A stretch of DNA of 64,000 nucleotides from a bacterium (GTDB lineage Bacteria; Bacteroidota; Ignavibacteria; UBA10030), in contig JAZDJN010000026.1 in assembly GCA_043803945.1 (NCBI GenBank), positions 1 to 64,000 of the forward strand. Reading direction: 5' to 3'. The stretch's first letter is position 1; each line of letters begins with the position of its first letter. The position numbers were made by a program, and so were the translations under genes. Below, in pieces: positions 220 to 26,264 of the stretch. The notes beneath the pieces are model-generated. The model was not told where the DNA came from. It made no database searches and worked only from the letters and a program-made list of their open reading frames with translations.

Positions 220-3033
220 CTACATGTTGAACTTGACACCTGCATGCATCCACCAGGAATAGAATTCCTGCTGCAGCGGACGGCTTTCCTGCCCCATGTA
301 GTAAATCATGGGTTCTTTGTTTAAGTTGATGACCTCAAGGTACACCTGCAGTCCCTTGTACACCTGCTGACTGGCAGAGAAGTCCATTTGCATGTGTTCT
401 TTGTAAATTCTGTCGTGTTGTGCGTCTGTTCCGACTTCCTCAGTGAATTTACCATTGTAGCTTATACTGAACCGGCCTGTGAATCCAAATTTTTCGTAAC
501 TGATGGAAAAATTGGCAACGTTTGCTGCCTGACCTGGTAATTCCGATCTCTCCAACCGTCCGCCCACATCCGCCGTTGCTTTAGTATAGGCGTAGTTAAC
601 CGATAAACCTAGCCCGTCCCAAAATCCCGGTAGGAACCTCATCTGCTGCTCCCAATTGAATTCGAAACCTATAAGTGTTGAGCTCCCACCATTCACCGGT
701 TGGAAGTAATAATACTTATCGTAAATACCACCTACGAGCCTCTTGGTTTGTGTGAAAATAATGTCGTTTAGCTTTTTATAGAAGACGCCACCGGAAATCA
801 TGCCGCCGGTCTGAAAATAGTGCTCGGCCATCAGGTCGAGGTTGGTCGCAGTGGTCGGTTTCAGCATCGAATTACCCTCACTGATTTCCTCAGCTTCTGC
901 ATCCACATTGCGATAAGGAACGAGATCGTAGAAGTTCGGCCGGGCCAGACTGGACGTGAACGCCAACCGGATGTTGCTCATCGGTGTCAGTTTGTACCGG
1001 ATGTGCGCCGTTGGCAGAAAATTGTTGTAACTGAGTTCCGATTCCATCCCAGTCGTCGATACGTAATCGCCGTTTGCATCCAGAAGAACTTGACTGCTTT
1101 TATTTGTTAGGCTGGTAAACTCATGTCGAACACCTACGAGAAACATCCACTGGTCCATATTCAAGGTATTCATAACATAGTATGCGCCGGTTTTTTCATT
1201 TGCTGTGAAACTTGCAGCTTCTGATGCTTGGTGGTCAATTGCGCCTACGAAACCAGTAGATTTGTCTTTCTGAGACTGGAAATATGATCTGAATTTGCCA
1301 TCAAGAATGCGACCTAGTCTGTAGGTTCCATCCAGTATAGTGGCCTCATCGCCAACAAACTGGGTCATCAGCAGATCGCTGGCACCTTTCCATCCGTAGA
1401 CCCATCGGTCTTGATTCTTCACTTTTTCTCTAATATGCATCTTGCCGCCAACTTTCAATTCAGATGGGAACTCTGCAAGCCTAAATGAATATTTCAAATT
1501 CGCTGAACCCAAAATATCCTTGTCTGTCGCAAGATCGTTATTATATTTGACTGCGTCCAGTTTGAAGTTGTCTGGATTAAACTGATCGTATGCAGCACCT
1601 ACGGTGGTAACATTGTATAACGGTTTATTCGGATTGCTCCTATCGAGCGTTAAGCCAACTTTCTTTATCATAACAAAGTTTGGATCGGTTTCGTCAGCTT
1701 TTTCCGTCTGTCCAAAGTTATATCCGATGGTGTAATCAAGGTTCAGGTTATCCATTTTGTGAATGCCGCCCGCTGAAAGTGCCATTATACTTTGTCTCTC
1801 GAGGCGATCCTTGAGTCCCATGTAAATCTTTGCATCTTTGATGGTGTTTGCATCTGCTTGGAATGTTCCCTTTGAAGGGCGAATATATAGATTACGTCGA
1901 TTTTCGATATCATCACGATTGTTGAACATACCGCGGATGAAGAAATTAATATCTTCGCTAGGGTGGTAATCTAAATTGCCTGCAACATTAAATCTTTCAC
2001 GAGAAATATTATAGTTCCTCATATCAAAGTCAACCAATGTCATAGGAAGGGCAACGCCAGTAGTGGTTGCTTTATCATCATAGGCTGTTTCGACATCCCA
2101 CGTTTCCCTCTTCCACTGATCGTAGTTGCCGGTTACCGCGATACCAAATTTGTCATCTGAGCCGAATTTTGTGCCGTATGTAAAGCCACCTTGCCAGAGG
2201 GGTTTACCAAATATATCGCTGTAGCCACTGCCGGCCTGGATATTAAAAAATGGTTTATCCGAGTCAAAAGCGCTTTTTGTTTTTATGTTCACAGAGCCAC
2301 CGATTGCATCAGCGTCTAGGTCGGGTGTAATGGCTTTCACAACTTCGATGGAAGCTGCTTGACTGGCTGAAATCACGTCCATTCCAACGAAACGTTCCCC
2401 AGGGTCAGGAGCGACGATGCGTTCCCCATTAACAGAAATGGAAGTGAGGCGAGCGTCGGTGCCGCGGATTTGTACGTAACGGCCTTCACCCTGATCGCGA
2501 ACGATCGAAATGCCGGAAATGCGCTGTAATATTTCAGCGGTGTTCAAATCAGGTAACTGCACCATTTGCTCTTGGGAAACAACGCTCAAAATATTATCCG
2601 AAGTTTTTTGAATATTTATGGCTTTAGTTTGTCCTTTTCTCAGTCCGGTTATTTCGACAACTGCCATCTCGACGGCACCAGCCTTGAGCGCCACATTTTG
2701 CCTTACTTTAAGGTTTGAACCATCAACTTTAATATTAATAGACTGACTCACATACCCAATATAGCTCACAACGAGCTCATAAGAACCAGGTGACAGGTTT
2801 GAAAGTCGGTAGTCACCATCTTTATTAGTCGCTGCGCCGATGGAAGTACCCTGGAGCCTCACGTTTGCACCAGGTAAATATTCTTTTGTATCTGCATCGC
2901 TAACTCGACCATAAATTTGTCCATTTGCTTGTGCCAAAACCGTTTGTGGTAAAATCAACAAACAGCTAAAGACAATGCAGTACAGAAGTATTGAGACATA
3001 TTTCACAAATTGATACAATGAATTAGTAACCAT
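220..3033 (-). CDS. TonB-dependent outer-membrane receptor (N-terminal carboxypeptidase-regulatory-like domain, plug, beta-barrel)
   Basis: Signal peptide; GRVSDADTKEYLPGANV N-domain; plug motifs GISIVRDQGEGRYVQIRG and IEVVKAITPDLDADAIGGSVNI; barrel motifs SLARPNFYDL and GNSMLKPT; C-terminal strand AGVKFNM. Confidence 0.93.
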   Translation of the reverse strand: MVTNSLYQFVKYVSILLYCIVFSCLLILPQTVLAQANGQIYGRVSDADTKEYLPGANVRLQGTSIGAATNKDGDYRLSNLSPGSYELVVSYIGYVSQSINIKVDGSNLKVRQNVALKAGAVEMAVVEITGLRKGQTKAINIQKTSDNILSVVSQEQMVQLPDLNTAEILQRISGISIVRDQGEGRYVQIRGTDARLTSISVNGERIVAPDPGERFVGMDVISASQAASIEVVKAITPDLDADAIGGSVNIKTKSAFDSDKPFFNIQAGSGYSDIFGKPLWQGGFTYGTKFGSDDKFGIAVTGNYDQWKRETWDVETAYDDKATTTGVALPMTLVDFDMRNYNISRERFNVAGNLDYHPSEDINFFIRGMFNNRDDIENRRNLYIRPSKGTFQADANTIKDAKIYMGLKDRLERQSIMALSAGGIHKMDNLNLDYTIGYNFGQTEKADETDPNFVMIKKVGLTLDRSNPNKPLYNVTTVGAAYDQFNPDNFKLDAVKYNNDLATDKDILGSANLKYSFRLAEFPSELKVGGKMHIREKVKNQDRWVYGWKGASDLLMTQFVGDEATILDGTYRLGRILDGKFRSYFQSQKDKSTGFVGAIDHQASEAASFTANEKTGAYYVMNTLNMDQWMFLVGVRHEFTSLTNKSSQVLLDANGDYVSTTGMESELSYNNFLPTAHIRYKLTPMSNIRLAFTSSLARPNFYDLVPYRNVDAEAEEISEGNSMLKPTTATNLDLMAEHYFQTGGMISGGVFYKKLNDIIFTQTKRLVGGIYDKYYYFQPVNGGSSTLIGFEFNWEQQMRFLPGFWDGLGLSVNYAYTKATADVGGRLERSELPGQAANVANFSISYEKFGFTGRFSISYNGKFTEEVGTDAQHDRIYKEHMQMDFSASQQVYKGLQVYLEVINLNKEPMIYYMGQESRPLQQEFYSWWMHAGVKFNM

Positions 3034-3341
3034 GATTACTTCCTCCTAAATTAGTTATGGTATTTATGAGGTTTATGAATCATATCCTTTGAATATTCTG
3101 AGTCGGGACTAACAATCGAAAAAATATTTTACCGTTGTGTAAGTAAACCATGTCTATATATTCCTGGTTGAGAGAAGATAAGTCACAGGATTTATTCGAT
3201 GTGGATAAGTGATGAATGTCCCTTTCATATTATATTAAGAAGACTAAACACGATTTATTTCAAGGGGTCAGTAGAAAATTGATTTACTGCACCGTGAGCA
3301 TACAATAATATTAAAAGACTCAACCAAAACTATGAATAGCG

Positions 3342-4421
3342 TTATCGTTGGGCTACAGAATCTCTTTCGACCAAGTAAGAAGTAAGTATAATAGATTTTG
3401 GATCGTGCGTTGCCCCAAGAATTCTTGAACTAATAAGTTTCATACTCTCCACACCCATTTCGTAAATAGGCTGGTGCATCGTCGTTAGTGGTATTGCGGG
3501 AAGATTCAGATCATCGTAGCCAACGATGGAAAGGTCGTGAGGAAAAGCAAGATTCATCTCTTTGGCAACCGAATAGAATGTAAGAGCAATTCTATCATGA
3601 CCTGCAAAGACCGCATTGATATTCTTGCTTCGTTTTAGAATTGAGCGTGCGTATTGAGAAAAATGTTCTTCGTTGAACGGTCCTGAATGACTTACGACTA
3701 TAGAAGGATCAAGTTGAATCTTTCTGTCTTCCAATGCTTTTTTATATCCTTCAAAACGAAACCGCTCAGCACTCGAGCTATTACCAAACACCATCGCGAT
3801 TTTTCTATGCCCTTTGTCGAGTAGATAATTCGTAAGTTTATAAGCGCCATCAAAATTATCAGTTGTTACTTGATCGGATTCTATGTCGGAGATAGTGCGA
3901 TCTGCAAGTACAACTGGAATATTTTTTTCTTTAAACTTTTGAATAATTATTTTATTCTTCTTGTCAGGCGATGCGGTAGGGACATAAATGACACCACAAA
4001 CATAATTTTCAATCAATCTGTTTGCATGAAACTCTGCCTTAATGAAAAGATCATCCGAACTACAAAGTATCACACTTTGTTTGCTCTTCGATGCTGTGTC
4101 TTCAACACCTCGAGCTAACTCAGGTGCATATCCACTGCGGATATCGGGAACTATCAATCCTATGATCGCTTGTTTCTGGTGACCCAGCTGAGGAATTGTA
4201 ACGAATGTGCCTAATCCTTTTTTGCGTGTGAGATATCCGAGGTTAGCAAGATTTTGAAGGGCTTGCCTTATTGTTGCTCGAGCCAGACCTGTCATTTGTA
4301 CAAATTCTGCTTCGGTAGGAATCCTATCATCAAGCTTAAATACTCCCTGTTCGATCTGTTCCTCAAGCCACGTCTGCAACTGAAAGTACTGGGGTATCGG
4401 ACTATTCTTATCGATTATCAT
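3342..4421 (-). CDS. GntR-HTH / LacI-type sensor hybrid transcriptional regulator (AraR-like)
   Basis: Likely start ATG at 4421 (MIIDKNSPIPQYFQLQ); GntR wHTH RIPTEAEF...RATIRQAL...GLGTFV, followed by a periplasmic-binding fold ending LSIVGYDD...LTTMHQPIYEMG. Confidence 0.9.
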   Translation of the reverse strand: MIIDKNSPIPQYFQLQTWLEEQIEQGVFKLDDRIPTEAEFVQMTGLARATIRQALQNLANLGYLTRKKGLGTFVTIPQLGHQKQAIIGLIVPDIRSGYAPELARGVEDTASKSKQSVILCSSDDLFIKAEFHANRLIENYVCGVIYVPTASPDKKNKIIIQKFKEKNIPVVLADRTISDIESDQVTTDNFDGAYKLTNYLLDKGHRKIAMVFGNSSSAERFRFEGYKKALEDRKIQLDPSIVVSHSGPFNEEHFSQYARSILKRSKNINAVFAGHDRIALTFYSVAKEMNLAFPHDLSIVGYDDLNLPAIPLTTMHQPIYEMGVESMKLISSRILGATHDPKSIILTSYLVERDSVAQR

Positions 4422-4425
4422 AATG

Positions 4426-4443
4426 TGTCTATATGTATAGACA
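4426..4443. promoter_or_regulatory. Candidate operator palindrome TGTCTATA-TG-TATAGACA
   Basis: Perfect 8-bp inverted repeat just upstream of the regulator start; the same half-site recurs at 3151-3158 and 4571-4578; GT..AC arrangement is typical of GntR operators. Confidence 0.6.
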
Positions 4444-4664
4444 AATATACATATGTTATAAATGTATGTCAAGTTATATTTTGTAATAGAAGCATTGAAA
4501 GACAATGAATATATCGTCTAATGGCATTGATTAAATATATTGCGGATGAAATCTCAGCTTATTATATTAGTATAGACAAATAGACAATAGAACAAACAAG
4601 AGTATACGTGTGTATATATGATCCCATTCAATACACGCTAGCTAAACAATAATCTGGAGGATAA

Positions 4665-5699
4665 ATGAAAGCCCTAGCTTATAAGGAAATTGGAAAAATT
4701 GCGCTAGAAGAACGATCTGTACCAAAAATTACTTCACCTGAGCAAGTGTTGCTCAAAGTGCTTGCGTGTGGAATTTGCGGGACGGATGTCAAAATATTAG
4801 AGGGAAAACACCCAGTTGGTAATAATACTATCTTAGGTCACGAATTCGTAGGCGAAGTTGTCGAGATAGGCGGTAAAGTTTCCACGCTGAATGTTGGAGA
4901 ACGCGTTGCTGTCGATAACAGCCTGCGCTGTGGTCTATGTGAGTATTGTAGAACGGGAAATAGCAGTCAATGTAATTGGCTGAAAGATAAATCCATCGGA
5001 ATTTTTCAAGATGGAGGATATGCCGAGTACTGTGTCTTACCCGAAAACGCATGCTACAAGGTACCTGACGAATTGAATGATATTGTCGCGACACAAGTTG
5101 AGACGCTTGGTACAGTTTTAAACGGGATGAATATCGTTCAAATGCAGCCTTGGGACTCCGTTGTAGTAATCGGTTTTGGTCCCATTGGATATTTGTTCTC
5201 GGCGCTTGCAAAAAATATTGCTGCTCGAGTTATGGCTCTCGAAATTGATGACTTTAGAATTAAGGTTGCAAAAGAATTGGGCGTTCCCGTCTTCAATCCG
5301 GATGATACTGACATAGAGAAACAAGTAATGAGTTTTAGCGATGGCAAAGGTGCCGAGATTGTAATTGATGCAGTTGGCACTCAATTAGAAAACGCTATCA
5401 AATATGTTGCTCCCGGAGGCAAAATATTAGCGTTTGGTATGGATAGCAGTGTCAAAGCCACAATCGTACCAAATACCATTACACGAAAAGCAATAAGAAT
5501 ACTCGGATCTTATATAGGGCAGAATACTTGTCTCTCAGCAATTAAGATATTGCAGTCGGGAAAAATAAATATGATTCCATTCTTTACTGAAGTAATTAAG
5601 TTAGAAGAAGGGGTAGGAGCCTTCAATAAATTGGGTTTAGATCTTAAGACTCAAAAGCAGATACCTAAACAAGCTATGAAGATAGTACTCAAACCGTAA
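4665..5699 (+). CDS. Zn-dependent medium-chain dehydrogenase (polyol/sugar dehydrogenase-like)
   Basis: ACGICGTD, GHE, structural Zn CGLCEYC...C, GFGPIG Rossmann motif; GGAGG RBS. Confidence 0.9.
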   Translation: MKALAYKEIGKIALEERSVPKITSPEQVLLKVLACGICGTDVKILEGKHPVGNNTILGHEFVGEVVEIGGKVSTLNVGERVAVDNSLRCGLCEYCRTGNSSQCNWLKDKSIGIFQDGGYAEYCVLPENACYKVPDELNDIVATQVETLGTVLNGMNIVQMQPWDSVVVIGFGPIGYLFSALAKNIAARVMALEIDDFRIKVAKELGVPVFNPDDTDIEKQVMSFSDGKGAEIVIDAVGTQLENAIKYVAPGGKILAFGMDSSVKATIVPNTITRKAIRILGSYIGQNTCLSAIKILQSGKINMIPFFTEVIKLEEGVGAFNKLGLDLKTQKQIPKQAMKIVLKP

Positions 5700-5764
5700 A
5701 GTCTCGGGTTGACTTAGATTGATCACTTTGATTAATTCCCAGTATGCTATGATAATGGAATTAT

Positions 5765-7117
5765 ATGAGAAACGTATTCAAGTTTTTTGCGGCAGGCGAA
5801 GACGCACCACTTATAGATGATGAAAGGCGTGTAAAATCTCTCTATAACAAGTACCGATGGCAAGTAATGGTAGCCATCACGATTGGATATGGAGTTGTAT
5901 ACACCTGTCGGCTTGCTCTATCGGTTGTTAAAAAACCTTTGATAGATAGTGGAATATTTTCCGCTGAAGACTTAGGGATCATTGGTTCCTCTCTATTCTA
6001 TACGTATGCTTTTGGAAAACTTACGAATGGATTCCTCGCTGATCATTCCAACATAAAAAGATTCTTTTCTTTTGGCGTTCTGGTTTCTGCTTTGATCAAC
6101 ATAGCCATGGGGTGGACTAATCTTTTATGGGTGTGGGTTGTCCTTTGGGGGCTTAACGGATGGTTCCAGGGTTTTGGTGCACCGGCAGGAATGGTTTCCT
6201 TGGCTCAATGGTTCAGCAACAAAGAAAGAGGACGCAGGTACGGAATATGGAGCACTGCCCACTCCTTAGGTGAAGGATTAACCATGGTCGGAGTAGCAGC
6301 GCTTGTTAGTTTCTTTGGTTGGCAGGCTGCATTCTTGGGCCCTGGCACGACCTGTATCGTTGTTGCTATTTTGATTTATATGTTTATTCAAGATCGTCCG
6401 AGAACATTAGGCTTGCCCTCGATAGCAGATTGGAAAAATGATCACGGTAATCCAGTGCTTAATGCAGAAGGACAGCCACCAAGTGTCTGGGAATTACAGC
6501 GTTCCATTCTTAAAATTCCTTCTATTTGGATCTTAGCGCTATCAAGTGCAAGTATGTATATCACTCGATATGCATTAAATAGTTGGGGTATCCTTTATCT
6601 TCAGGAAGTCAAGGGTTATACGCTTATGGAGGCCGGAAGCATGTTGGGTTTAAACACGATTGCCGGCATTCTTGGTTGCCTTGCGTACGGCTATGCATCC
6701 GACAAACTATTTCATGCGCGACGTCCACCGGTAACTTTAATAGTCGGTATCTTAGAAATTTTTGCTCTGATTGTGATTTTCTATATGCCACCAGGTCATT
6801 CGACGCTGTTAACACTTGCCTTCCTTCTCTACGGCTTTTCTTTGAATGGTTTAGTAACAACGCTCGGTGGTTTATTCGCCACAGATATTGCACCGAAGAA
6901 AGCAGCAGGTGCTGCGATGGGATTTATTGGCGTATTCAGTTATCTCGCAGCAGCCACACAAGAGCGTATTAGCGGATTTTTGATTGAAAAAGGAACAATT
7001 GTAATCGATGGTGTGAGACACTATGATTTCAGCGCTGCTATTGTATTCTGGGTTGGGGCATCTGTAGTTTCTCTAATTCTTGCAACTTCGCTATGGAATG
7101 CCAAGGTGAGTGACTAA
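5765..7117 (+). CDS. MFS organophosphate:Pi antiporter (GlpT/UhpT/UhpC family)
   Basis: YRWQVM..YTCR, YAFGKLTNGFLAD, WFSNKERG..WSTAHSLGEG, DIAPKKAAGAAMGFIGVFSY motifs; about 12 TM segments. Confidence 0.9.
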   Translation: MRNVFKFFAAGEDAPLIDDERRVKSLYNKYRWQVMVAITIGYGVVYTCRLALSVVKKPLIDSGIFSAEDLGIIGSSLFYTYAFGKLTNGFLADHSNIKRFFSFGVLVSALINIAMGWTNLLWVWVVLWGLNGWFQGFGAPAGMVSLAQWFSNKERGRRYGIWSTAHSLGEGLTMVGVAALVSFFGWQAAFLGPGTTCIVVAILIYMFIQDRPRTLGLPSIADWKNDHGNPVLNAEGQPPSVWELQRSILKIPSIWILALSSASMYITRYALNSWGILYLQEVKGYTLMEAGSMLGLNTIAGILGCLAYGYASDKLFHARRPPVTLIVGILEIFALIVIFYMPPGHSTLLTLAFLLYGFSLNGLVTTLGGLFATDIAPKKAAGAAMGFIGVFSYLAAATQERISGFLIEKGTIVIDGVRHYDFSAAIVFWVGASVVSLILATSLWNAKVSD

Positions 7118-7133
7118 GATGTATGGAGATCAA

Positions 7134-8045
7134 ATGGTAAGTAAATCAAAATTGTACGACATAGTAATTTTTGGCAATTATACAAAAGACACCATCATTA
7201 CGAACACGGGAATAAGATACTTGGATGGTGGTGGATTCAATTATGGAGCGCATGCTGCCAAGATGCTAGGACTAAACGTCGCTGCAGTAACTCGTTTAGC
7301 AAAAGAAGATCGTCGCGTCGTAGACAAATTGGAAAAGATCGGCGTGGATGTTTATCCTTTCTTCACGCCTTCTTCCACCCACATGGTATTGGAATATCCA
7401 ACTTCTGATCCAGATGATAGAATATTAAGAAGCCCTGTAACTGCCGGTTCATTTACTGATGATCAATTTGACGGATTGGATGCAAAGGCTTTCTTAATGA
7501 GCGGATCCATTCGCGGTGAAATCCCCTATGGTGTCGTGACAGCGCTTCGCAAAAAGAGCGCTTTGCTTGTTGCAGACCTGCAAGGCTTTATTCGTATCAT
7601 CGCACCGGATAACAGACTCCTGCACGCTCCTTGGCCAGAAAGGGATAAATATCTTGCTTTGATTGATGTGTTAAAAACAGATTCAGTTGAAGCAGAATCC
7701 TTAACGGGCGAATCGAATTTCAAAAAAGCTGCTACGATGATCTCAGAGCTTGGGCCCAAGGAAATTGTTCTAACCCATAAAGATGGAATTCTCGTTCTTG
7801 CAGAGAATAAGTTTTATGAAGCGAAGTTTCACGCTAAAAGTTTGGTGGGACGCAGCGGCAGAGGAGATACTTGCATCGCTTCCTATATGGCGAAACGACT
7901 AACTGAGCCTCCTGAGGCTGCGATTGTTTGGTCTGCTGCTGTCACAAGTTTGAAGATGGAACGTGAAGGTCCCTTTTTGCTAAGTGTTGAAGATGTTCGA
8001 TCACTCATTGAAGAAAAGTATACTTATCCCGTTTCACCAAAGTGA
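7134..8045 (+). CDS. PfkB-family carbohydrate kinase, candidate inositol kinase
   Basis: GNYTKD..GGG N-terminal motif and GRSGRGDT variant anion-hole motif; iol operon context; start 7134 chosen from GGAG RBS (ORF track starts 7110). Confidence 0.8.
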   Translation: MVSKSKLYDIVIFGNYTKDTIITNTGIRYLDGGGFNYGAHAAKMLGLNVAAVTRLAKEDRRVVDKLEKIGVDVYPFFTPSSTHMVLEYPTSDPDDRILRSPVTAGSFTDDQFDGLDAKAFLMSGSIRGEIPYGVVTALRKKSALLVADLQGFIRIIAPDNRLLHAPWPERDKYLALIDVLKTDSVEAESLTGESNFKKAATMISELGPKEIVLTHKDGILVLAENKFYEAKFHAKSLVGRSGRGDTCIASYMAKRLTEPPEAAIVWSAAVTSLKMEREGPFLLSVEDVRSLIEEKYTYPVSPK

Positions 8046-9141: not shown

Positions 9142-9176
9142 TCCATGGTATCAATATCAAATTGATCGGAGTCGTG

Positions 9177-14895: not shown

Positions 14896-14936
14896 GAAAA
14901 CATTATGCAAGGCAAAATCGATCTTGACTTGAAAAA

Positions 14937-15893: not shown

Positions 15894-16040
15894 TGCTTGT
15901 GCTACTTTCAGAAAATATTATTGTATTTCATCACAGATCTCCATCACTGTACAGCATTCCTATGCATTCCACGGCTATCTCTGCGTCTCAGCATTAAGAC
16001 ACAAGTTGTCATAAGTCATAACTCGCAAGAGGATATTTGT

Positions 16041-17043: not shown

Positions 17044-18639
17044 ATGATCAAAAAATCATGGATCTTTTCAATCATCACATGGTCGGTTTTTGTTACTTTA
17101 GCTTTCGGACAATCCAAGTCTGCTGCATCGGCAACGCCAGACAACATCAGGCTGACATGGTCGGAAAGTCCAAAGACGACCCAAACCATAGGCTGGCGTA
17201 CAGATTCCACAGTTGCTAAAGGAGAAGTTCAATACGCAAAATTGGGCCAGGCATTTGCGACATCTTCAACCCCCGCGCCGGAAATTCTTATTACCAACGT
17301 CGGTAAAATCCATCTTTTCTCTACAACTTTGCGAAACCTGCAACCGGGTGCACGGTACCAGTACCGGGTGGGTAACGGTGTTCATTGGAGCGCCACTTAT
17401 ACTTTTGAAACCGAAAACGCTAGTGCGGATAAGTTCGAGTTCATTGTCTTCGGCGATTCGCATAAAAAAAAGCCGGAGTATACTGTTTGGCAGAAGACGG
17501 TTAACAATGCCTATCGACAAAATCCGGATGCAAAGTTTATGATGAGTGTTGGCGATCTGATCTATTCCGGAAAGGATTATGTTCAATGGCAGGCATGGTT
17601 TGCTGCGTGTCAGGATGTTATTGCCCGTATTCCAAATATGCCTGCAATAGGCGATCATGAACCACGGGGCGTAACCAGCAAAGACGAATGGCAAAGACCC
17701 GAGTACTTTATTAAGCTGTTTAAAGTCCCCCAAAATGGACCGACAAATTTCAAAGGTGAAGTCTACTCATTTGATTATGGTTCGGCGCACATTTCGGTAC
17801 TGAACAGTTCGTTTGCATACGAATTTGCGGATTCAGCGAATCGGCAGGCTATGGTTCAGGCTGAAACGGCATGGCTGAATGCCGATCTCGCCGCTACCAC
17901 TAAACCGTGGAAAATAGTCTTGTACCATGATGCTACCTATAATTTAGCTCCGGACCGGTCTGGAATTTATACCAAGACTCATTTTGGACCGATCATCGAT
18001 AAATATCATGTCGATGCAGTCTTCAACGCGCACGACCACGCTATGGCCAGGAGTTATTTCATAAAAAATGAAAGTTTTGTACAAAGTGCAGCAGAAGGTA
18101 CGGTATACTTTATTTCAGGCAGATCGGGCGACAACGCCAAAGAAAGTCTGGTGCGTAAAATATGGCATCCTTTTTTCTATGATCCACAGGCGCAAACCTG
18201 TTATCTTACCGTGGATGTGGATCAAAAGGAACTGACAGTTAAAACCAAACTCGAAGACGGCACGATAGTGGACGTATTCAAGATTAATAAAAATAAACCT
18301 GAAGAGAGTACGCCGGTGATTCCATTCGGTGCATACCAAAGTCCACGTTTTGCTGCATTCGGGAGTCTACTTCAATTCGGCAAACCGCCCGAGCAGAATA
18401 GCACCGGGGAATGGTTTGTCGATATCAATGCTTTGGCTGCTTATCTAACAGGCCAATTCAATCCATTAACTAATACATTCAGTTATAACGAAGGTGATAT
18501 CCAGCTTCAATTGGCCAATGGAATGTTTTTGGATGAATCCAAAACAATGGTTTCATTGACTGGGCTCACTTCGGTAGGCTTTTACTGTAAATACCACCCA
18601 GCTATGAACCTGGTCATAGTGGAACGGTGGAGGGACTGA
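17044..18639 (+). CDS. Secreted metallophosphoesterase with purple-acid-phosphatase FN3-like N-domain and an unrecognised C-terminal domain
   Basis: Signal peptide; PDNIRLTW...LRNLQPGARYQYRVG FN3-like domain; GDSH, GDLIY, GDHE, YH, AHDH metal motifs. Confidence 0.85.
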   Translation: MIKKSWIFSIITWSVFVTLAFGQSKSAASATPDNIRLTWSESPKTTQTIGWRTDSTVAKGEVQYAKLGQAFATSSTPAPEILITNVGKIHLFSTTLRNLQPGARYQYRVGNGVHWSATYTFETENASADKFEFIVFGDSHKKKPEYTVWQKTVNNAYRQNPDAKFMMSVGDLIYSGKDYVQWQAWFAACQDVIARIPNMPAIGDHEPRGVTSKDEWQRPEYFIKLFKVPQNGPTNFKGEVYSFDYGSAHISVLNSSFAYEFADSANRQAMVQAETAWLNADLAATTKPWKIVLYHDATYNLAPDRSGIYTKTHFGPIIDKYHVDAVFNAHDHAMARSYFIKNESFVQSAAEGTVYFISGRSGDNAKESLVRKIWHPFFYDPQAQTCYLTVDVDQKELTVKTKLEDGTIVDVFKINKNKPEESTPVIPFGAYQSPRFAAFGSLLQFGKPPEQNSTGEWFVDINALAAYLTGQFNPLTNTFSYNEGDIQLQLANGMFLDESKTMVSLTGLTSVGFYCKYHPAMNLVIVERWRD

Positions 18640-18762: not shown

Positions 18763-21648
18763 ATGAGGGTGTTCGATTTATTTAACAAAGTTGAACATAA
18801 AAATGTTTTAGAACAATCAAATCCTGATTGGTTGAAAGAATTATGTCTGAGTCTCAAAGAAAAAGTATGCTGTGATATTGTTACGCTACAGCTTTATAGC
18901 ACAGCCGCTTGCTTTTATGATATTACTCCCATGGCAGTCGTAATACCGGATAACATTGAAGACATAATAACAACAGTAAAGATTTGTGCAAAGTATAACG
19001 TCCCAGTCTTGCCTCGCGGTGCGGGTTCGAGCTTGTCTGGCAATTCGGTTGGCAAAGCAGTTCTTATGGATTTGACTCACGGTTTTAAAGAGATAACATT
19101 TATTAACGATAGAAAAGTTAAAAGCGGTGTGGGTGTTGTATTGAATCATCTGCAGGATAGACTGAAGCGAACGAATAGATTATTCGCACCCGATCCAAGC
19201 AGTGGAAACGTTTGTGTTATAGGGGGTATGCTAGGCAATAACAGCGGTGGTCCGCACACGTTAAAGCATGGCAACATGTATAAGCATGTTGAAGAAATTA
19301 CGGCTGTTCTTTCTAATGGAAAGATTTTCAATGCGAAAAACATATCGCTGGTTGATATTCACAAGTTAGACGATTTCCACAAACCTTATTATGAAAAAGT
19401 AAAACAGTTGCTAGAAAAATATTCTGATGACATTACCACAAGCAGGCCAAACGTGACAAAGAGTACTTCGGGTTATCAGGTATGGGATATTCTTACCGAT
19501 ACGCATCTCAACATGGCGTCGTTGATGGTTGGCAGCGAAGGCACGCTCGGGGTATTTACCGATGCCACACTTAAAGTAATTCCTGCCATAAAACACCGTG
19601 GAATACTCTCGCTCTATTTTACAGACATAGCAAAGATGGGCACTGCAGTAAAGCATCTAAGAGCTTTAGGCGCATCTGCCATCGAATTTGTTGACCAGTC
19701 GTTTATTCAACTTGCTTTGAGTTTTAGACCGGAGCTGAAAAAGTTTTTGCCGGAATATGTGAAATATCTATTGTATGTAGAGTATGAAGATGACGAGATA
19801 AAGAACATTGAAGATTTGTTTACTAAAACCCGTCAAATAATTTTTGATCATGAAAAATTAGCAGAAGTCGGTGCATGTTCAGTAGATGAAGAAGAGATAG
19901 CAAATATATTTAGGATTAGAAAAGCCGCAACGGTAATCCTTAATAAGATTCAAGGTAAAGAGAAGCCTGTTCCGTTTATAGAAGACGCTGCAATTCATCC
20001 CGATCGATTCTCGGAATTCCTAATTGATCAAGCCAAGTTGCTTGAAAACTTTTCGTGTAAGTATGTCGTATTTGGGCACGCTGGAGATGGAAATCTTCAT
20101 ATCCGTCCATTATCAAATTTCCGAGATGAAAATACCTTCAACGAAACGGATAGATTAACCCAGAGCTATGTTGACTTAGTTCTTAAATATAAAGGGACAC
20201 TGAGCGGCGAACATGGCGACGGCAGATTAAGAACCCCTTTTCTAAAAAAATGTTATCCGAAACTTATTCCTTTATTCGAAGAGATAAAAAATCTTTTTGA
20301 TCCTTCAAGAATCATGAATCCGGATATCATCGTTCCGTTGAAAGAATATAAATGGAATGAGAACCTTAGATATTCCCCTGATTACAAATATATACAAACA
20401 TCGTCCAGACTCGATGCAGATAAATGGAGAATGGAGATTGAAAAATGTCATGGCTGCGGCACTTGCAGAGAATATTGTCCTGTTTTTATTGCCACTGGAG
20501 AAGAAGAAGCTACTGCACGGGCAAAAGCAAATATTCTACGCGGAATGATCTCTGGGAAAGTATCAGCCGATGCTGTTGATACAAGTCACTTCTATAAAAT
20601 TATGGATTATTGTATCAACTGCGGGCAATGTATAACTGATTGCCCGACCGCTGTCAATATTCCTGGAATGGCAATACTCGCAAAAGAAAAACTGCGGGAA
20701 AACCGTTCCTACAAAATCAGCGAGTATATTCTTCAAAGAGGTAACCAAGTCAGCACGCTTGCCTCTTTATTCTCTTCAGTGAGTAACATTGCAATGTCGA
20801 CGCCTTTGATGAGAACATTGATGCACTTTACGATTGGAATTGATCGCCGGAGAAATATGCCAAGGTTTTTCAGGCAGAAGAAACAACCGCAATTGCTTGA
20901 TGGGAAGATTGGAAAGAAAGTCGTCTTATGGTCGGGATGTGCTGCGCAGTTCAATGACCCTCAGGGAGAATTGAAAAGTTGTAAGCAAATTCTGAATAAG
21001 TTAGGGTATGATGTAATTCTTCCAGATTGGAAATGCTGCAGTGTCGCTAAATTGTCATACGGAAATATAAAAGATTCTTTGAATGATATTGAATACAATA
21101 TAAAAGTGCTGCTCCCCTATGTAAATCAAAATATCCCAATTCTTTTCACCAGTGCCTCGTGCGGGTATGCCTTTATGCACGAGTATGAAACGTTGTTCAA
21201 TGATAACGCTGACATAAAAAAAATCGCACAATCAAGCAAAGATATCCATGATTTCCTCGGCAGCGTTTTTCTCAATGGAGAACAAAAGTATTCCTTTACA
21301 CCCATAAGCAAAAAAGTTGTCTATCATGCACCTTGTCACCTCAAAGTTCAGAAGAACAAGTTTGGACCAACGGATTTGCTCAAAGTGATTCCAAACTTGG
21401 AGTTGTGTAGAATAAATGATAGCTGCTGTGGAATCGCCGGAACATTTGGAATGAAAAAAGAAAATTTCGATCTTTCAATGGAAATAGGATCCGCACTCTT
21501 TGCAGAAATAAAAACAGCTAGCCCCGACTATGTATTATCCGGGTGCGGCACTTGTCAGATTCAAATACGCCAGGGCACCGGCTTGGATGTGATTCACCCA
21601 ATTATACTATTGAACGAATCATTTCAACAAATGGGCGGTAAGGAATAA
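18763..21648 (+). CDS. FAD-binding and Fe-S-binding oxidoreductase (YdiJ-like GlcD+GlcF/GlpC fusion)
   Basis: PRGAGSSLSG, GSEGTLG, GHAGDGNLH, SGEHGDG; two CxxCxxCxxxCP clusters; CCS/CCG cysteine-rich domains. Confidence 0.9.
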   Translation: MRVFDLFNKVEHKNVLEQSNPDWLKELCLSLKEKVCCDIVTLQLYSTAACFYDITPMAVVIPDNIEDIITTVKICAKYNVPVLPRGAGSSLSGNSVGKAVLMDLTHGFKEITFINDRKVKSGVGVVLNHLQDRLKRTNRLFAPDPSSGNVCVIGGMLGNNSGGPHTLKHGNMYKHVEEITAVLSNGKIFNAKNISLVDIHKLDDFHKPYYEKVKQLLEKYSDDITTSRPNVTKSTSGYQVWDILTDTHLNMASLMVGSEGTLGVFTDATLKVIPAIKHRGILSLYFTDIAKMGTAVKHLRALGASAIEFVDQSFIQLALSFRPELKKFLPEYVKYLLYVEYEDDEIKNIEDLFTKTRQIIFDHEKLAEVGACSVDEEEIANIFRIRKAATVILNKIQGKEKPVPFIEDAAIHPDRFSEFLIDQAKLLENFSCKYVVFGHAGDGNLHIRPLSNFRDENTFNETDRLTQSYVDLVLKYKGTLSGEHGDGRLRTPFLKKCYPKLIPLFEEIKNLFDPSRIMNPDIIVPLKEYKWNENLRYSPDYKYIQTSSRLDADKWRMEIEKCHGCGTCREYCPVFIATGEEEATARAKANILRGMISGKVSADAVDTSHFYKIMDYCINCGQCITDCPTAVNIPGMAILAKEKLRENRSYKISEYILQRGNQVSTLASLFSSVSNIAMSTPLMRTLMHFTIGIDRRRNMPRFFRQKKQPQLLDGKIGKKVVLWSGCAAQFNDPQGELKSCKQILNKLGYDVILPDWKCCSVAKLSYGNIKDSLNDIEYNIKVLLPYVNQNIPILFTSASCGYAFMHEYETLFNDNADIKKIAQSSKDIHDFLGSVFLNGEQKYSFTPISKKVVYHAPCHLKVQKNKFGPTDLLKVIPNLELCRINDSCCGIAGTFGMKKENFDLSMEIGSALFAEIKTASPDYVLSGCGTCQIQIRQGTGLDVIHPIILLNESFQQMGGKE

Positions 21649-21652
21649 TATA

Positions 21653-22201
21653 ATGTCGATTAACTCTGCCGCGATTTTCCATCGGTATTGGCGATCGATT
21701 CGGTATGGAAGGACGAGCACACGTACGGGCTCTGAAGCAAGCACTTGACAAAGGAGTGGAAGTAATTTCAGTTTGGAACAAATCCAATCGAGAGCATACC
21801 ATCATCGGGACGGAACCTCTTTCTGCCCGACAGGAAGCAGATGCGACAGTACAAGATGAGAAGGGGATGTTACCATACTTCTGTGACGCCGACCGTGTCG
21901 GACTTAAAACACTCAACCGTAAACACCTGCAGAATTGTATCTCTTTCTTGCTGGTCTGGCAAAGTTAGATGTCGCAGCCCAAACTGTGGCGCCAAAGTTT
22001 TGTGGCAAGTTCTTAAAGGGAATTGATTATGTCGGAGATGTATCGGCATTTACGCGTGAATTCGAGAGCGATCTTACCGTAATAGAGATAGCAAAAGCAG
22101 AGTTTTCACATACGCTGGAATTGAAACCCAGCATACATTCCGGAAGCGATAAATTTTCATTACTCGCACCGTTCTACCACTGTTCATTGGCACGTAGATA
22201 G
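21653..22201 (+). pseudogene. uxaE: Degenerate tagaturonate epimerase (uxaE) copy
   Basis: LTLPRFSIGIGDRFGMEG...WNKSNREH in one frame, then QTVAPKF.GKFLKGIDY...HSGSDKFS in another; ATG out of frame, about 100 codons deleted internally, C-terminus missing. Confidence 0.88.
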
Positions 22202-22479
22202 AATAAGAGGTTGAAATAATTTGTGACTTCGGCTAAAGAAGGAAATTCAAAATAAAACTGATAAGACGTTTGTCTCGTCTCGATCTTTCTTTAAGGATAA
22301 TCTTTCATGGCATTCAAGAATAGTTGAATCCCTCTATGAGGAATGCTAATTTACATTAAAGCATACGGAGAAACGCTCGCATGATCTTGTAGTGATAGTA
22401 GAGTTAATAGGGATGAATAGTTGCCTACTCTGAGATTATAGGTATATTTTTATCGATCAAAAAAGTGAAAGGTAATATC

Positions 22480-23451
22480 ATGAAAACGGTAGGTATTCGT
22501 GTTTGCTCTTTAGCAATTCTATTCATTGGATTGCAAGTGATCATACATTCACAAGAAAGAATTAAGATTGTTGTCATCCCTAAAAGCAATACATCCTATT
22601 ACTGGAAATTAGTGCGCACAGGTATCAAATTAGGAGCGGTTGCCTTATCGCGAATCGATATTGAGTGGAGAGCTCCGGAAATAGATCATGATAAAGCCCA
22701 GCAGATTTCTATATTGGAGGAATGTATCACCGAGGGGGTTTCCGGAATTGTTCTCTCACCGTTGGATAATGTTGCATTAGCAATACCGGTTGCAAAAGCA
22801 TTAAAGAAAAACATTCCTGTGTTGATTTTTGACAGTGCCCTCAAAGGTAAGCCGGGGAAGGATTTTATCTGTTTCGTTGGGATCGATAATAGTAAGGCGG
22901 GAAAAATTGCCGGTGAGGAGTTGGCAAAATTGCTCGGAGGCAAAGGCAAAGTTGTTCTTCTTGGATCTAAAGGATCATCCAATATCATCGCACGTGAAGA
23001 AGGATTTCTCGAGACATTGGCAAAATATAAAGGCCTTCAATTGATCAAGCAGATCAGTTACACTGGCACATCCAGCGATGAAGCGATGGATGCGAGCATG
23101 AAAATGGCGGATCAACTCAAGGAAGCCGATGGAATTTTCTGTTCCAGAGAAATATTAACAATTGGGATGCTTAACGCTCTACGCAATCTTCATTTGATAG
23201 GTAAAGTTAAATTCATAGGTTTCGATACACCTGCAGCTGCAGTTGATGCCTTGAAGAAGGGCGAGATGAGCGCTTTGATTAGTCAAAATCCTGCACGAAT
23301 GGGTTTTTTCGCCATCAAAACGATCGTTGATCATATTCGCGGTAAAGAGGTTCCTTCAACAATCGATATAGATGTGCAAATCATTACTCGTGAAAACATA
23401 AATGATCCGAATATTCAAAAACTCCTCATCTTACCGGGTATAAAGGAATAA
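22480..23451 (+). CDS. Second sugar-binding periplasmic protein (RbsB/LacI-like fold)
   Basis: Signal peptide; IVVIPKS..YW, FDSAL, FVGIDN, REEGF, GFD, QNP..MG. Confidence 0.88.
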   Translation: MKTVGIRVCSLAILFIGLQVIIHSQERIKIVVIPKSNTSYYWKLVRTGIKLGAVALSRIDIEWRAPEIDHDKAQQISILEECITEGVSGIVLSPLDNVALAIPVAKALKKNIPVLIFDSALKGKPGKDFICFVGIDNSKAGKIAGEELAKLLGGKGKVVLLGSKGSSNIIAREEGFLETLAKYKGLQLIKQISYTGTSSDEAMDASMKMADQLKEADGIFCSREILTIGMLNALRNLHLIGKVKFIGFDTPAAAVDALKKGEMSALISQNPARMGFFAIKTIVDHIRGKEVPSTIDIDVQIITRENINDPNIQKLLILPGIKE

Positions 23452-23535
23452 ATATATTCTCTAAATTATAACCTTCGGAATGTAATACATATAATTCTTT
23501 GATAACCTTCAGAAGGTCAGATAAGGTTTCAAAAA

Positions 23536-23815
23536 TCATTTCTCATCCAACACATTCCGCAGAACTTTTAGAACTTTCTTAAGATCGTATGGTTTGCCCA
23601 AGAAAATATCTATGCTCACTTTCAAAAAATCTGATTTCATTTCTGCATCAAGAACGCCGTCGCAACAATGATTCCAGCACTCGGATTAAGTTGTTTTATC
23701 CGTCTATACATATCGATGCCAATAATCGAGGGCAATCCAAGATCGGTAATGAAATGCGATCTCTTGTTGCTGTTCCATATATACCTTCAACGCCGCCGAT
23801 CCTTACAGAACGAAA
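23536..23815 (-). pseudogene. Response-regulator receiver domain remnant
   Basis: Manual translation across two frameshifts: ALKVYMEQQQEIA / ITDLGLPSIIGIDMYRRIKQLNPSAGIIVAT / GVLDAEMKSDFLKVSIDIFLGKPYDLKKVLKVLRNVLDEK*; has the phospho-Asp D-x-x-L-P, conserved Thr and KP motifs. Confidence 0.8.
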
Positions 23816-23824
23816 GAGTTCACA

Positions 23825-24859
23825 TTGGGCGGTTTTGAAGCAATAAAAAAAGTAGGCCAGGGTTCGTTCATGGTGATCACAGGCGACCTCGATCCACCGC
23901 AAGCTACTCGCGAATTGATAGATATGGTTTTCGGCAAAAAATATCTCTGGTACCCCATCGTCGGTAATCATGATTTCGAAAAGGCTGCGGATATACAGTA
24001 TCTTCGTGCACTTAATAGCGGTGACAAATCACTCTCTCATCTCGTACGAAAGGGACCGGTGGGCAGTGAAGAGACTTCTTATTCGTTTGATTGGAATGAT
24101 GCTCATTTTATTGTGCTTAATCTTTACTACGATGGGAAGAGTGATATTGGTGGGACAGGTAATATTGCCCCTGAGCTTTTTGATTGGCTACAGAAGGATC
24201 TAGATCATAACACCAAGAAATGTATTTTTGTCTTCGGTCATGAACCGCTCCTGACTATCCCTGACATGGATAATGGCTCGATTCGACATCAGGGAAATTC
24301 TTTGGATCAATATCCCGAAACCGTTTTCAAGTTTCATCAAATGCTTGTTAAGTATAAAGTTACTGCTTATATCTGTGGTCATACTCACCGTGCATCGTTC
24401 GCAAACATCAATGGTCTTTGGCAATTTGATCCCGGTCATATCCGTGGTTATGAAGCCGACTATACTCCCGATAGGTTGTATGCCCGCATCTCAGAAGAAA
24501 TGAAAAAAAAGAAGGACACGGGAATCACTCTGAGTAAAACACTTGTTGATTTCTATAAGTCAGACATAAAAGAGGTAAATAAGATTATTTTTAGTTTAGG
24601 CTTCGGCAGCGGGAAGTCATACGACGAAGTGAGCGAGAATGAAGCAATTACAGGGTTGAATTATTTTTTTATAGATTACGAGAAAAGTATTGAAACAAGA
24701 AATCAACACAAAAAGAAATTCCAGGAGAATTGTGGATGGGGCAAGAGTTCTTTTCTGAGAATCACGGTCAACAAGACATCGACACATGTGGAAATATATC
24801 GAGATGATGATTTCAGCGGAAACTATATATTGAAGCATTCGCAGTTATTAAACCAATAA
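23825..24859 (+). pseudogene. 5'-truncated calcineurin-like metallophosphoesterase
   Basis: GDLD, GNHD, FGHEP and CGHTH present; first metal-binding Asp motif, signal peptide and RBS absent; abuts the receiver remnant. Confidence 0.65.
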
Positions 24860-24989
24860 ATGCGACTGTCGTTGTTCGAGTGTATGTCGACTACGAAACA
24901 GCAACTCTTTGGAAATCATCAATCTGGTATTTAACTGATCCGAATAAATATTGTGGTTATTCATTTCATCATGCGAAAGGAATAGTATA

Positions 24990-26264
24990 ATGATTGCAAA
25001 TCCGTTAACATTACCGCGATATTCTATCGGTATTGGCGATCGATTCGGCATGGAAGGACGAGCACAGTTACGGGCTTTAAAGCAAGCACTTGATAAAGGA
25101 GTGGAAGTAATTCCTGTTTGGAACAAATCCAATCGAGAGCATACGATTATCGGAACACGGCCGGAAGATGCGCGCAAGGCAGCAGATGATGCTGTGAAAG
25201 CAATGGATTGGAAAGGGAAGTATTACCTTGACGCAGACCATATAAGTCTCATAACGGTGGATCCTTTTATTACGCACTGTGATTTCTTTACTCTGGATGT
25301 CGCGGATTTCATCAGAACAACACCTGATCCATTGGAACTTGAGGTGTTCGAACGTGAGATGAAACCGTTGTGCGGCTTGCTTCGGATTCCTACGATGAAT
25401 AGAGAAATTCGAGTTTCAGAAGAAATGATTCGCACGATTGGCTCAAAATACCTCTGTGCAGTGAAGGAAGCAGGTAGAATTTATAGGTATATCCAAAATC
25501 GAAAAGAAAATGCCGAAATAATCGTTGAAATCTCGATGGACGAAACTAATTTGCCACAGACACCGGTGGAGCTGTTCTTTATCCTCGCTGCGGCTGCTCA
25601 GGAAAAAATCCCCATTCAAACGATTGCTCCAAAATTCTCCGGGATGTTTCTCAAAGGGATTGATTACATAGGAGACCGCTCGGATTTCGCAAAGGAGTTC
25701 GAGGAAGATATCATCGTTGTGTCTCATGCAATCAGCGTCTTCAGCTTACCCTCAAGTCTCAAGTTAAGTGTCCACTCCGGCAGTGATAAATTCTCTCTTT
25801 ATCCATTGATGTATCAAGCGATGAAGAAACACAATGCAGGTCTCCATTTGAAAACTGCAGGAACTACCTGGCTGGAAGAAGTGATCGGACTCGCTGCCGC
25901 TGGGAATGAGGGATTACGCATCGCGAAGGAGATCTACAAAAGCGCTTATATGCGGATAGATGAACTCTGTGCTCCATATGCAACGGTTGTTCAAATCGAA
26001 CGAACGAACCTCCCCTCGCCGGAACAGGTAGAACAATGGACCTCAAACCAATTCGTTTCGACACTTCGCCACGATCAGCATTGTCCAACCTATAATAAAG
26101 ATATCCGTCAAATGATTCATGTTGCTTTCAAAGTTGCTGCAGAGATGGGAGATCGGTATCGAAATGCTTTAGAGACACACGAGAAAATCATAGGGAAATG
26201 CGTTACAGATAATCTCCTCGAACGCCATATCAAACCTCTCTTTCTCGGTGAGCACTCTGTATGA
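24990..26264 (+). CDS. uxaE: D-tagaturonate/D-fructuronate epimerase
   Basis: SIGIGDRFG, DADH, EISMDET, APKF, SVHSGSDKF, HLKTAGTTWLEE; AAAGG RBS before ATG 24990. Confidence 0.92.
   Translation: MIANPLTLPRYSIGIGDRFGMEGRAQLRALKQALDKGVEVIPVWNKSNREHTIIGTRPEDARKAADDAVKAMDWKGKYYLDADHISLITVDPFITHCDFFTLDVADFIRTTPDPLELEVFEREMKPLCGLLRIPTMNREIRVSEEMIRTIGSKYLCAVKEAGRIYRYIQNRKENAEIIVEISMDETNLPQTPVELFFILAAAAQEKIPIQTIAPKFSGMFLKGIDYIGDRSDFAKEFEEDIIVVSHAISVFSLPSSLKLSVHSGSDKFSLYPLMYQAMKKHNAGLHLKTAGTTWLEEVIGLAAAGNEGLRIAKEIYKSAYMRIDELCAPYATVVQIERTNLPSPEQVEQWTSNQFVSTLRHDQHCPTYNKDIRQMIHVAFKVAAEMGDRYRNALETHEKIIGKCVTDNLLERHIKPLFLGEHSV

Follow-up and report, generated by a model that had tools for sequence, protein, structure and literature searches.

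The core of Thermotoga-type inositol catabolism, the chemistry of pyrophosphate (PPi)-dependent inositol kinases and the pairing of TonB-dependent receptors (TBDRs) with phytases are already known. The operon TM0411-TM0416 of Thermotoga maritima encodes IolM, IolN, IolO, an IolG-like dehydrogenase and a PPi kinase of the TM0415 type (PMC5931981, PMC3750489; these and all papers cited below are used to the extent of their accessible text), and proteins of all five kinds are also encoded by the DNA analysed here, a stretch of 64,000 nucleotides (the window) that forms the start of contig C26 (JAZDJN010000026.1) in a genome of the Ignavibacteria (GCA_043803945.1; 5.54 Mb, 118 contigs, completeness 100). 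Phosphate-ester carriers of the OPA family exchange the ester for inorganic phosphate (Pi), UhpT being regarded as a carbon route (PMC9306846). Phytases, in the accessible parts of the published work, are mostly treated as tools of phosphorus starvation, the inositol being cross-fed to other species.

The inositol locus and its conservation

At positions 220 to 26264 of the window lies what is likely a copy, in part decayed, of a system under repressor control by which inositol phosphates derived from phytate are used, chiefly for their carbon, as judged from gene identities, linkage, co-occurrence and the operator pattern; all substrates, the kinase direction and expression are inferred. A first-pass annotation had read the locus as a TonB-coupled system for inositol-phosphate use, and this reading is supported by conserved linkage in relatives. 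Every gene it named is present at its position according to the open reading frame (ORF) list and the Pfam and NCBIfam profiles. Its list lacked the GntR-LacI regulator, the Zn dehydrogenase (4665), the FAD/Fe-S oxidoreductase (18763), a uxaE-like remnant (21660-22180) and a solo sugar-binding protein (22465). The features of the system are as follows.

220..3033, - strand, TBDR of a phytase-associated clade (TIGR01782 494 bits, cut-off 310)
3342..4421, - strand, repressor with GntR helix-turn-helix and LacI-type effector domain (Pfam GntR and Peripla_BP)
4432..4472, - strand, sigma-70-type promoter of the repressor gene (11 of 12 matches) with overlapping putative operator
4567..4580, no strand assigned, second operator-like site upstream of the dehydrogenase-antiporter-kinase genes (position weight matrix score 13.8; same position in relatives)
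4665..5699, + strand, second Zn-dependent dehydrogenase, below the IolM cut-off
5765..7117, + strand, OPA-family phosphate-ester:Pi antiporter (GlpT 1PW4 E 1e-56; UhpC, PgtP and GlpT models all below cut-off)
7110..8045, + strand, PPi-dependent inositol kinase, TM0415/IolK family, Leu-Leu-Ser acceptor type (PfkB; TM0415 E 3e-43)
8128..9141, + strand, IolG-like inositol dehydrogenase (TIGR04380 322 against a cut-off of 355; best PDB matches are inositol dehydrogenases)
9162..10364, + strand, IolM, scyllo-inosose 3-dehydrogenase (NF041097 488, cut-off 450)
10388..11482, + strand, IolN, 3-dehydro-scyllo-inosose hydrolase (NF041098 302, cut-off 245)
11488..12300, + strand, IolO, 5-keto-L-gluconate epimerase (NF041099 353, cut-off 300)
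12366..13340, + strand, exported metallophosphoesterase resembling tartrate-resistant acid phosphatase (TRAP/ACP5; mammalian TRAP E 3e-42; N-terminal hydrophobic leader by eye)
13405..16985, + strand, CUT2 monosaccharide ATP-binding cassette (ABC) importer: ATPase, permease and binding protein (profiles)
17044..18639, + strand, exported metallophosphoesterase resembling purple acid phosphatase (PAP), with FN3 domain (PF16656 and PF00149; plant PAP E 3e-11; hydrophobic leader by eye)
18763..21648, + strand, FAD-linked, Fe-S 2-hydroxyacid dehydrogenase-like protein (profiles)
23612..24859, + strand, pseudogene of the conserved exported metallophosphoesterase of the system (40-62% identity to intact orthologues; 5' part out of frame)
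24951..26264, + strand, divergent UxaE-family epimerase (PF16257 183 bits)

The earlier identification of iolM, iolN and iolO stands, as all three products exceed the NCBIfam cut-offs, whereas the iolG call is sound only at the level of an IolG-like protein, scoring below the cut-off of its model; the best PDB match of this protein is 3EZY (E 1e-72), which we take to be TM0414. The reaction steps of IolG, IolM and IolN are those of the family names and of the established pathway. The product of IolO is D-tagaturonate (PMC12632266).

The gene annotated as uxaE does belong to the PF16257 family, but encodes a divergent member with ~26% identity to the canonical UxaE on contig C56, which scores 539 bits. 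Contig C56 carries the genes of the downstream route, namely canonical uxaE, uxaC, and those for a D-mannonate oxidoreductase, a nickel-dependent hexonate epimerase and a Gnd-like protein (the last assigned by eye). Orthologues of the divergent UxaE (53-55% identity) lie after the phytase gene in G271, G422, G443, G453, G484, G467 and G441; this enzyme travels behind the phytase, its reaction being uncertain.

The Zn dehydrogenase encoded at 4665 is probably an inositol or inositol-isomer dehydrogenase, and its position ahead of the antiporter gene is occupied by a member of the IolG family in L049, L053, L055 and G462. Two entry dehydrogenases, either a canonical IolG with a second IolG or a divergent IolG with the Zn enzyme, were observed in many loci (L049, L055, L126 and the window), hinting at the use of more than one inositol stereoisomer. 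Upstream of the repressor gene in L074, L075 and L079, electron transfer flavoprotein (ETF) beta and alpha subunits and a short FAD oxidase stand in for the fused FAD/Fe-S protein and have a strong operator ahead of them; this suggests that an as yet undescribed oxidation of a 2-hydroxyacid is linked to the pathway. Sequence searches of PDB gave no substrate for the Zn dehydrogenase, the FAD/Fe-S enzyme or the ABC binding protein, and Atlas gave generic names only for the Zn dehydrogenase and the third phosphoesterase. Genome-wide, no IolE exceeded its cut-off (IolB, IolC and IolD were not part of that search) and no myo-inositol-phosphate synthase (MIPS) was found, while a proton-pumping pyrophosphatase (H+-PPase), one Inositol_P-family monophosphatase and one glycerophosphodiester phosphodiesterase (GDPD) are encoded.

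A scan of GTDB for iolN gave 57 loci, and with G003 and G271 added 58 genomes were tabulated by their iolN contigs, many of which are short and only some of which were extended. These contigs carry the repressor (28 of 58), the ABC binding protein and the Zn dehydrogenase (24 each), the antiporter (22), the kinase (21), the TBDR (17, including fragments in G447, G454 and G485 and one other-clade TBDR in G449), the phytase (15), the third phosphoesterase (14), the FAD/Fe-S enzyme (13), the TRAP-like protein (10) and the divergent UxaE (5). Since the same genes recur together in many of these genomes, their clustering is not due to chance. The full co-oriented set (repressor, iolGMNO, ABC importer, FAD/Fe-S enzyme, dehydrogenase, antiporter, kinase, TRAP-like protein, TBDR, phytase and UxaE-like protein) is found in G422 and in G271, the latter a single-contig genome with an intact cluster. 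The divergent layout of the window recurs in G438, where a PTP (protein tyrosine phosphatase)-like phytase and a 66% orthologue of the 12366 protein lie behind the TBDR. Conservation beside iolMNO, a test set beforehand, was thus found for the TBDR, for an exported phosphoesterase and also for the OPA antiporter; relatives have, in addition, a phytase adjoining the TBDR. The closest relatives of IolN (90-93% identity) come mostly from Ignavibacteria records. Two genomes carry two iolN copies (L057 and L058 of G461; G478).

TonB receptor, phytase and repressor

The receptor is not of the SusC type (TIGR04056 62 against a cut-off of 368), and no SusD match occurred among the neighbours scanned. 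In a quick tree of 36 rows, with SH-aLRT support only, it falls within a clade of 22 rows (SH-aLRT 99), 19 of which adjoin a beta-propeller phytase gene, this adjacency being partly built in because most tree rows came from regions chosen for a phytase match; the remaining rows are one beside a PTP-like phytase gene (G438, PF14566), a duplicate view of G481 and the window receptor. Five other TBDRs of this genome and the phytase-adjacent TBDR of G486 lie outside the clade. A metagenome scan with the receptor returned a single, unrelated locus.

The absence of phytase, SusD and IolE from the window, remarked upon in the first-pass annotation, was borne out by a Pfam scan of the 44 window proteins, and the genome as a whole gave no match to PTP-like phytase, PhoA-like proteins or PF00328. 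A beta-propeller phytase is nevertheless encoded elsewhere in the same genome, on contig C11; it is the only one, and shares 64-66% identity with two locus-borne phytases. No phytase gene adjoins the window receptor, and its left neighbour cannot be read because the contig starts at position 1 with the end of an insertion sequence (IS).

1..141, no strand assigned, end of a multi-copy IS and contig break, near-identical at many contig ends
155..189, - strand, terminator-like hairpin after the TBDR gene, 15-pair stem

The element, presumably IS1634-like, is complete on contig C87, where it carries a transposase-like ORF of 612 amino acids; a hairpin also lies between the TBDR and phytase genes of G271 (by eye). 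The possibility that C11 joins the window on its left was considered but could not be demonstrated. The repeat at the end of C11 is short and differs from the IS, and the 4 bp flanking the IS lead to C24, C27 or C80, contigs with unrelated end genes. A multi-copy repeat of ~155 bp, often tandem and flanked by CTAG, breaks many contigs (the end of C11, C26 near 99 kb, C38, C9 and C40), and one of its copies immediately precedes the start of the phytase gene.

The phytase search (PF02333) covered 50 of the 56 iolN genomes, with six left out, and gave a match in 31, in 13 of which a single contig carries the phytase gene and iolN at most 30 kb apart. The control, a single unbiased sample of 401 genomes of the class used in all searches, contains iolN in 4, the kinase in 4, the antiporter (at least 60% identity) in 4 and the phytase in 8 genomes. 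All four genes are held by the same four genomes, whereas the phytase occurs in 4 of the 397 others (Fisher p 7e-8 for iolN-phytase co-occurrence, 3e-6 without this genome, both overstated because kin are not independent).

The palindrome TTGT-N4-ACAA was found upstream of 28 of the 28 repressor orthologues, mostly directly after a TTGACA..TATAAT-like promoter, and in 24 cases it follows the strict consensus TTGTMTAKACAA. The window operator matches TTGTMTAKACAA with one mismatch; the start of the window repressor was set from orthologue lengths. A first operator guess, a long palindrome, failed in relatives and was replaced by this 12-bp site. With a matrix trained on repressor promoters alone, two sites were found in the window, both between the repressor gene and the 4665 gene, against 22 of that score in the 5.54-Mb genome. 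In relatives such sites precede the dehydrogenase-antiporter-kinase genes, iolM and the ETF module; strict matches were found before 6 of 475 unassigned genes, and all 6 share an intergenic region with genes of the locus. Sites scoring close to the training set also precede the phytase gene in 5 of 32 phytase rows (G271, G422, G447, G451 and G467), which argues for control of the phytase by the inositol repressor, through this predicted operator, in one lineage at least. None of 29 TBDR genes has an operator directly upstream. The predicted sites before the repressor gene, the antiporter-kinase genes and, in one lineage, the phytase gene point to control of the carbon type.

Proposed entry of inositol phosphates and neighbouring features

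Two intact exported phosphoesterases and a broken third had been described for the locus; all are present, but the broken one is the best conserved and the intact two are interchangeable extras. Counts and layouts across the iolN loci indicate that the position between kinase and TBDR can be filled by one or another of several exported phosphoesterases, the broken one being the commonest; an intact orthologue of it is encoded, for example, at L034:6469-7659. In the window copy of the latter, homology is in frame only from ~23789, after two stops, so that the leader and the first metal-binding Asp are lost. The predicted fold of an intact orthologue (pLDDT 89) is calcineurin-like with a helical insert, nearest to TRAP and then to Rv0805 and GpdQ; such a model match does not separate a monoesterase from a diesterase. 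Close orthologues of the 12366 protein (61-66%) occur in 3 genomes; the 17044 protein has an orthologue on none of the 58 iolN contigs and one elsewhere, between kinase and phytase (G450). In purple acid phosphatases seven metal ligands are supplied by the motifs DxG, GDxxY, GNH[DE], VxxH and GHxH. By motif comparison the full set is absent from all three proteins: the 12366 protein has GDNYH, with His where the purple Tyr is expected, the 17044 protein GDHE in place of GNHE (no Asn) and the third family GD[LIV][DE]P. A bacterial PAP with phytase activity has been reported (PMC6355987), whereas PAP phytases are elsewhere called plant-specific (PMC13674438).

The antiporter has the OPA fold and phosphate-binding residues in common with GlpT, UhpT and PgtP; among 25 sequences R45 and H165 are kept in 25, K80 in 22 (R in 2) and R269 in 24, which we take to be the phosphate-binding positions of GlpT. 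It could be assigned to no OPA member of known substrate, every model scoring below cut-off. Antiporters of the window type differ from GlpT in Lys46 to Leu (25/25), Trp138 to Ala (24/25) and Asn162 to Ser (25/25), and the smaller side chains at 138 and 162 would make for a larger pocket. No report of an inositol-phosphate OPA member was found in the literature searched. The CUT2 importer, whose binding protein resembles ribose and allose binders in the PDB search, presumably takes up free inositol, considering its genomic context.

The PfkB kinase was correctly called and can be placed further as a PPi-dependent enzyme of the TM0415 type. All five residues of the PPi signature (K171, F221, R229, R232 and M266) are kept, and these residues define PPi use in TM0415-type kinases (PMC5931981). 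The acceptor site reads Leu, Leu and Ser at TM0415 positions 78, 89 and 116, so that the set of TM0415 itself (N78, S89 and L116), which yields Ins(1)P, is absent. The structure 7E4L carries the first two of these changes (positions 78 and 89), which presumably shift the product to Ins(3)P. Homolog No. 49 of Levilinea saccharolytica has, like the window kinase, Leu, Leu and Ser at 78, 89 and 116 together with the PPi signature, and used PPi to yield three inositol monophosphates other than Ins(1)P (PMC5931981); the likeness is judged from the residue pattern, its genomic context and reverse reaction being unreported in the accessible text. There, only the forward reaction (PPi and inositol) was measured, an acceptor other than myo-inositol was suspected and the physiological role of these kinases was left open (PMC5931981).

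Of 23 distinct kinases of at least 50% identity, 22 are encoded within two genes of the antiporter, and the remaining one has an alkaline phosphatase, a phytase and an orthologue of the 17044 protein as neighbours. Three more distant kinases, with a site of the Asn type, are instead encoded close to SSF or ABC importers. Because of the fixed pairing of kinase and antiporter, and because the scanned neighbours revealed no cytoplasmic phosphatase within the module, the kinase may remove phosphate by transfer to Pi. It is a tentative proposal, which we hold to be possible rather than probable, that inositol monophosphate enters by an undescribed two-part route made up of the antiporter and the Leu-Leu-Ser kinase, with the kinase running in reverse (InsP + Pi to inositol + PPi). 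The forward reaction is the favoured direction, the reverse being uphill by a few kJ/mol; the latter could be pulled by inositol oxidation and PPi use, and PPi-forming acetate kinase is a precedent for such chemistry. The energy of the ester would be saved as PPi, usable by the H+-PPase of the genome, and a loose isomer specificity would admit the mixed monophosphates left by phytases.

Taken as a whole, the system may work as follows. A lipoprotein phytase and the TBDR would capture phytate or partly stripped inositol phosphates, which exported metallophosphoesterases of three interchangeable families would strip further. The ABC importer would take up free inositol, and the OPA antiporter would bring in inositol monophosphate against Pi. 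Handling of the imported ester would fall to the PPi-dependent kinase, most economically by its reverse reaction; otherwise the housekeeping monophosphatase would free the inositol. The IolG-like enzyme, IolM, IolN and IolO would then lead to D-tagaturonate, and UxaE with the hexuronate genes of C56 would carry on.

Two further features lie within the locus, the second without counterpart (at least 40% identity) on any of the 58 iolN contigs.

21660..22180, + strand, decayed uxaE-like remnant (split into two pieces that lie in different frames, with an internal deletion and one stop)
22465..23451, + strand, solo periplasmic sugar-binding protein (Pfam)

The locus is partly decayed in this genome, as seen from the insertion sequence and pseudogenes. 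The GC content is 0.39-0.44 in the left part of the window (1-32000, locus included) and mostly 0.46-0.50 in 32000-64000. Further to the right, CreD is split into two overlapping ORFs that are the two halves of PF06123 (27868-29177), an unannotated exported protein (30782-32071) has a 35% homologue directly 3' of the IolG gene in the iol locus L044 (13867-14734), and a second sugar cluster (43502-52891) contains two TIM-barrel isomerases, a Gfo/Idh/MocA dehydrogenase and a GH78 rhamnosidase. In other loci an exported family of ~250 amino acids is encoded directly 3' of iolO (L033:7692-8435, L034:12149-12895, L079:11895-12659, L082:1412-2047 and L083:11932-12714), with no Pfam match in the 4 of 5 members scanned and no match in this genome. 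The last residue is aromatic or hydrophobic, as in outer-membrane barrels, and these proteins could serve as inositol porins. The locus L156 (G407), a TBDR-OPA-GDPD cluster with an antiporter related to that of the system, is a candidate for glycerophosphodiester uptake.

Alternative readings and known systems

Several observations weigh against the use of phytate as proposed. The adjacency of receptor and phytase is, as said, in part a product of sampling. The receptor branch in the window is long (0.79 against 0.24-0.28 for its sisters), the conserved phosphoesterase is broken, and the phytase gene on C11, at a contig end, has a short repeat immediately before its start and lacks an operator. 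No site above threshold precedes the window TBDR or the C11 phytase, the strict consensus has 0 occurrences in this genome, and the five genomes with a phytase operator are close kin. No phytase match was obtained in 19 of the 50 iolN genomes, the phytase stands in an unrelated context in several (G449, G466 and G475), and many iolN loci lack the phytate module, some having an SSF symporter instead. Many of these points bear on a narrower reading, in which the phytate arm of this genome is dead or dying and only free-inositol catabolism remains: the IS end behind the TBDR, the repeat at the phytase start, the broken phosphoesterase, the uxaE remnant, the weak operators and the long branch would all fit. 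Yet the TBDR, antiporter, kinase, two other phosphoesterases and phytase ORF are of full length with no in-frame stops, and we consider such a loss rather unlikely, if well worth keeping in mind. That a free-inositol operon and a phosphorus-scavenging TBDR-phytase module merely lie side by side and serve separate needs, carbon and Pi starvation, would accord with the many loci that have no module, with the 0 of 29 TBDR genes directly preceded by an operator and with the Pi-starvation pair Fjoh_1367/1368 of Flavobacterium (PMC8115612). However, the operator precedes the phytase gene and a sub-operon usually embedding the TBDR, all four iolN genomes of the class sample hold a phytase, and Pi leaves the cell again by OPA antiport, as suits the gain of carbon (PMC9306846), so that a mere juxtaposition seems very improbable.

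The substrate might also derive from lipids (glycerophosphoinositol or phosphatidylinositol head groups), the exported enzymes being diesterases and the antiporter taking glycerophosphoinositol, Ins1P or glycerol-3-phosphate. This is an improbable explanation, although the closest paralogue of the antiporter beyond the system is flanked by a TBDR and a GDPD (G407) and a phosphatidylinositol-specific phospholipase C is encoded near iolMNO in L040, two points which likewise weigh against phytate. NPP-family phosphodiesterases also adjoin the phytase in G478 and G480, and the model of the conserved phosphoesterase matches Rv0805 and GpdQ next after TRAP. On the other hand, the position behind the TBDR is filled by phytases of two unrelated folds, no GDPD was found among the scanned neighbours of iolN and phytase loci (a selection of unassigned ORFs), and the Leu-Leu-Ser type of kinase did not make Ins(1)P, the isomer derived from phosphatidylinositol (PMC5931981); besides, lipid and phytate diets are not exclusive. 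Anabolic salvage for inositol lipids was considered as well, the genome having been searched for MIPS only (absent). A more serious doubt concerns the kinase, which might run forward only (PPi + inositol to InsP) and provide an inducer, a biosynthetic precursor or an isomer trap, the major facilitator protein here taken for an antiporter being a UhpC-like sensor or an exchanger. The favoured energetics, the lack of MIPS and the best NCBIfam match of that protein, UhpC (though far below cut-off), would agree with this. So would the forward direction, the only one measured, and the suspected acceptor other than myo-inositol (PMC5931981). Against it, phosphorylation would work contrary to the oxidation of inositol, the carrier has no conserved two-component partner next to it and the scanned neighbours offer no cytoplasmic phosphatase. 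We regard a forward-only kinase as a real, if not the prevailing, possibility; it concerns one step and is compatible with phytate use, just as the Inositol_P-family monophosphatase of the genome makes the reverse reaction dispensable, a point against its place in the scheme.

If the proposed use of phytate inositol as carbon holds, its meaning would lie in the fact that phytate is a major organic phosphorus store: a single regulon capturing, stripping, importing and burning phytate would release Pi regardless of phosphorus status. Judging by record titles, the little-studied lineages that would be added to the phytate carbon cycle are Ignavibacteria, KSB1, Calditrichota, Marinimicrobia and Acidobacteriota, and candidate functions would be at hand for three orphans, namely the PPi-dependent inositol kinases, an inositol-phosphate OPA antiporter and a new exported phosphoesterase family.

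The architecture had not been recognized as a described system in the first-pass annotation, and likewise no paper on the combination was found in the literature searched, outside which most subscription papers and the key Thermotoga papers fall. A Thermotoga inositol operon with InoEFGK was reportedly described by Rodionova in 2013, where inositol phosphate is said to have been proposed as substrate and the ABC importer to bind it; the use of inositol phosphate by a Thermotoga-type pathway is therefore not new. T. maritima does not grow on free inositol. Its regulator is the ROK protein IolR, in contrast to the GntR-LacI repressor of the window, where an OPA antiporter and a CUT2 importer are found and the kinase acceptor site is Leu-Leu-Ser rather than Asn-Ser-Leu. 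To the T. maritima set the present system adds the TBDR, the phytase, exported phosphoesterases, a second dehydrogenase and the FAD/Fe-S enzyme. Pairs of TBDR and beta-propeller phytase were reportedly noted by Lim in 2007. Fjoh_1367/1368 consists, as here, of a SusD-less TonB receptor beside a PF02333 phytase, but the Flavobacterium pairs are Pi-starvation genes, whereas the pair of the present system sits in an inositol-catabolic cluster with the operator of its repressor (PMC8115612). Canonical iolBCDE clusters also serve inositol catabolism, but by a different chemistry, and a large survey of inositol clusters would miss the organisms treated here, because its accessible text never mentions Thermotoga or iolM (PMC9430895). 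If the two-part entry route is real, and if the inositol repressor governs receptor and phytase, several lineages from sediment and soil would be complete phytate mineralisers missed by standard iol surveys.

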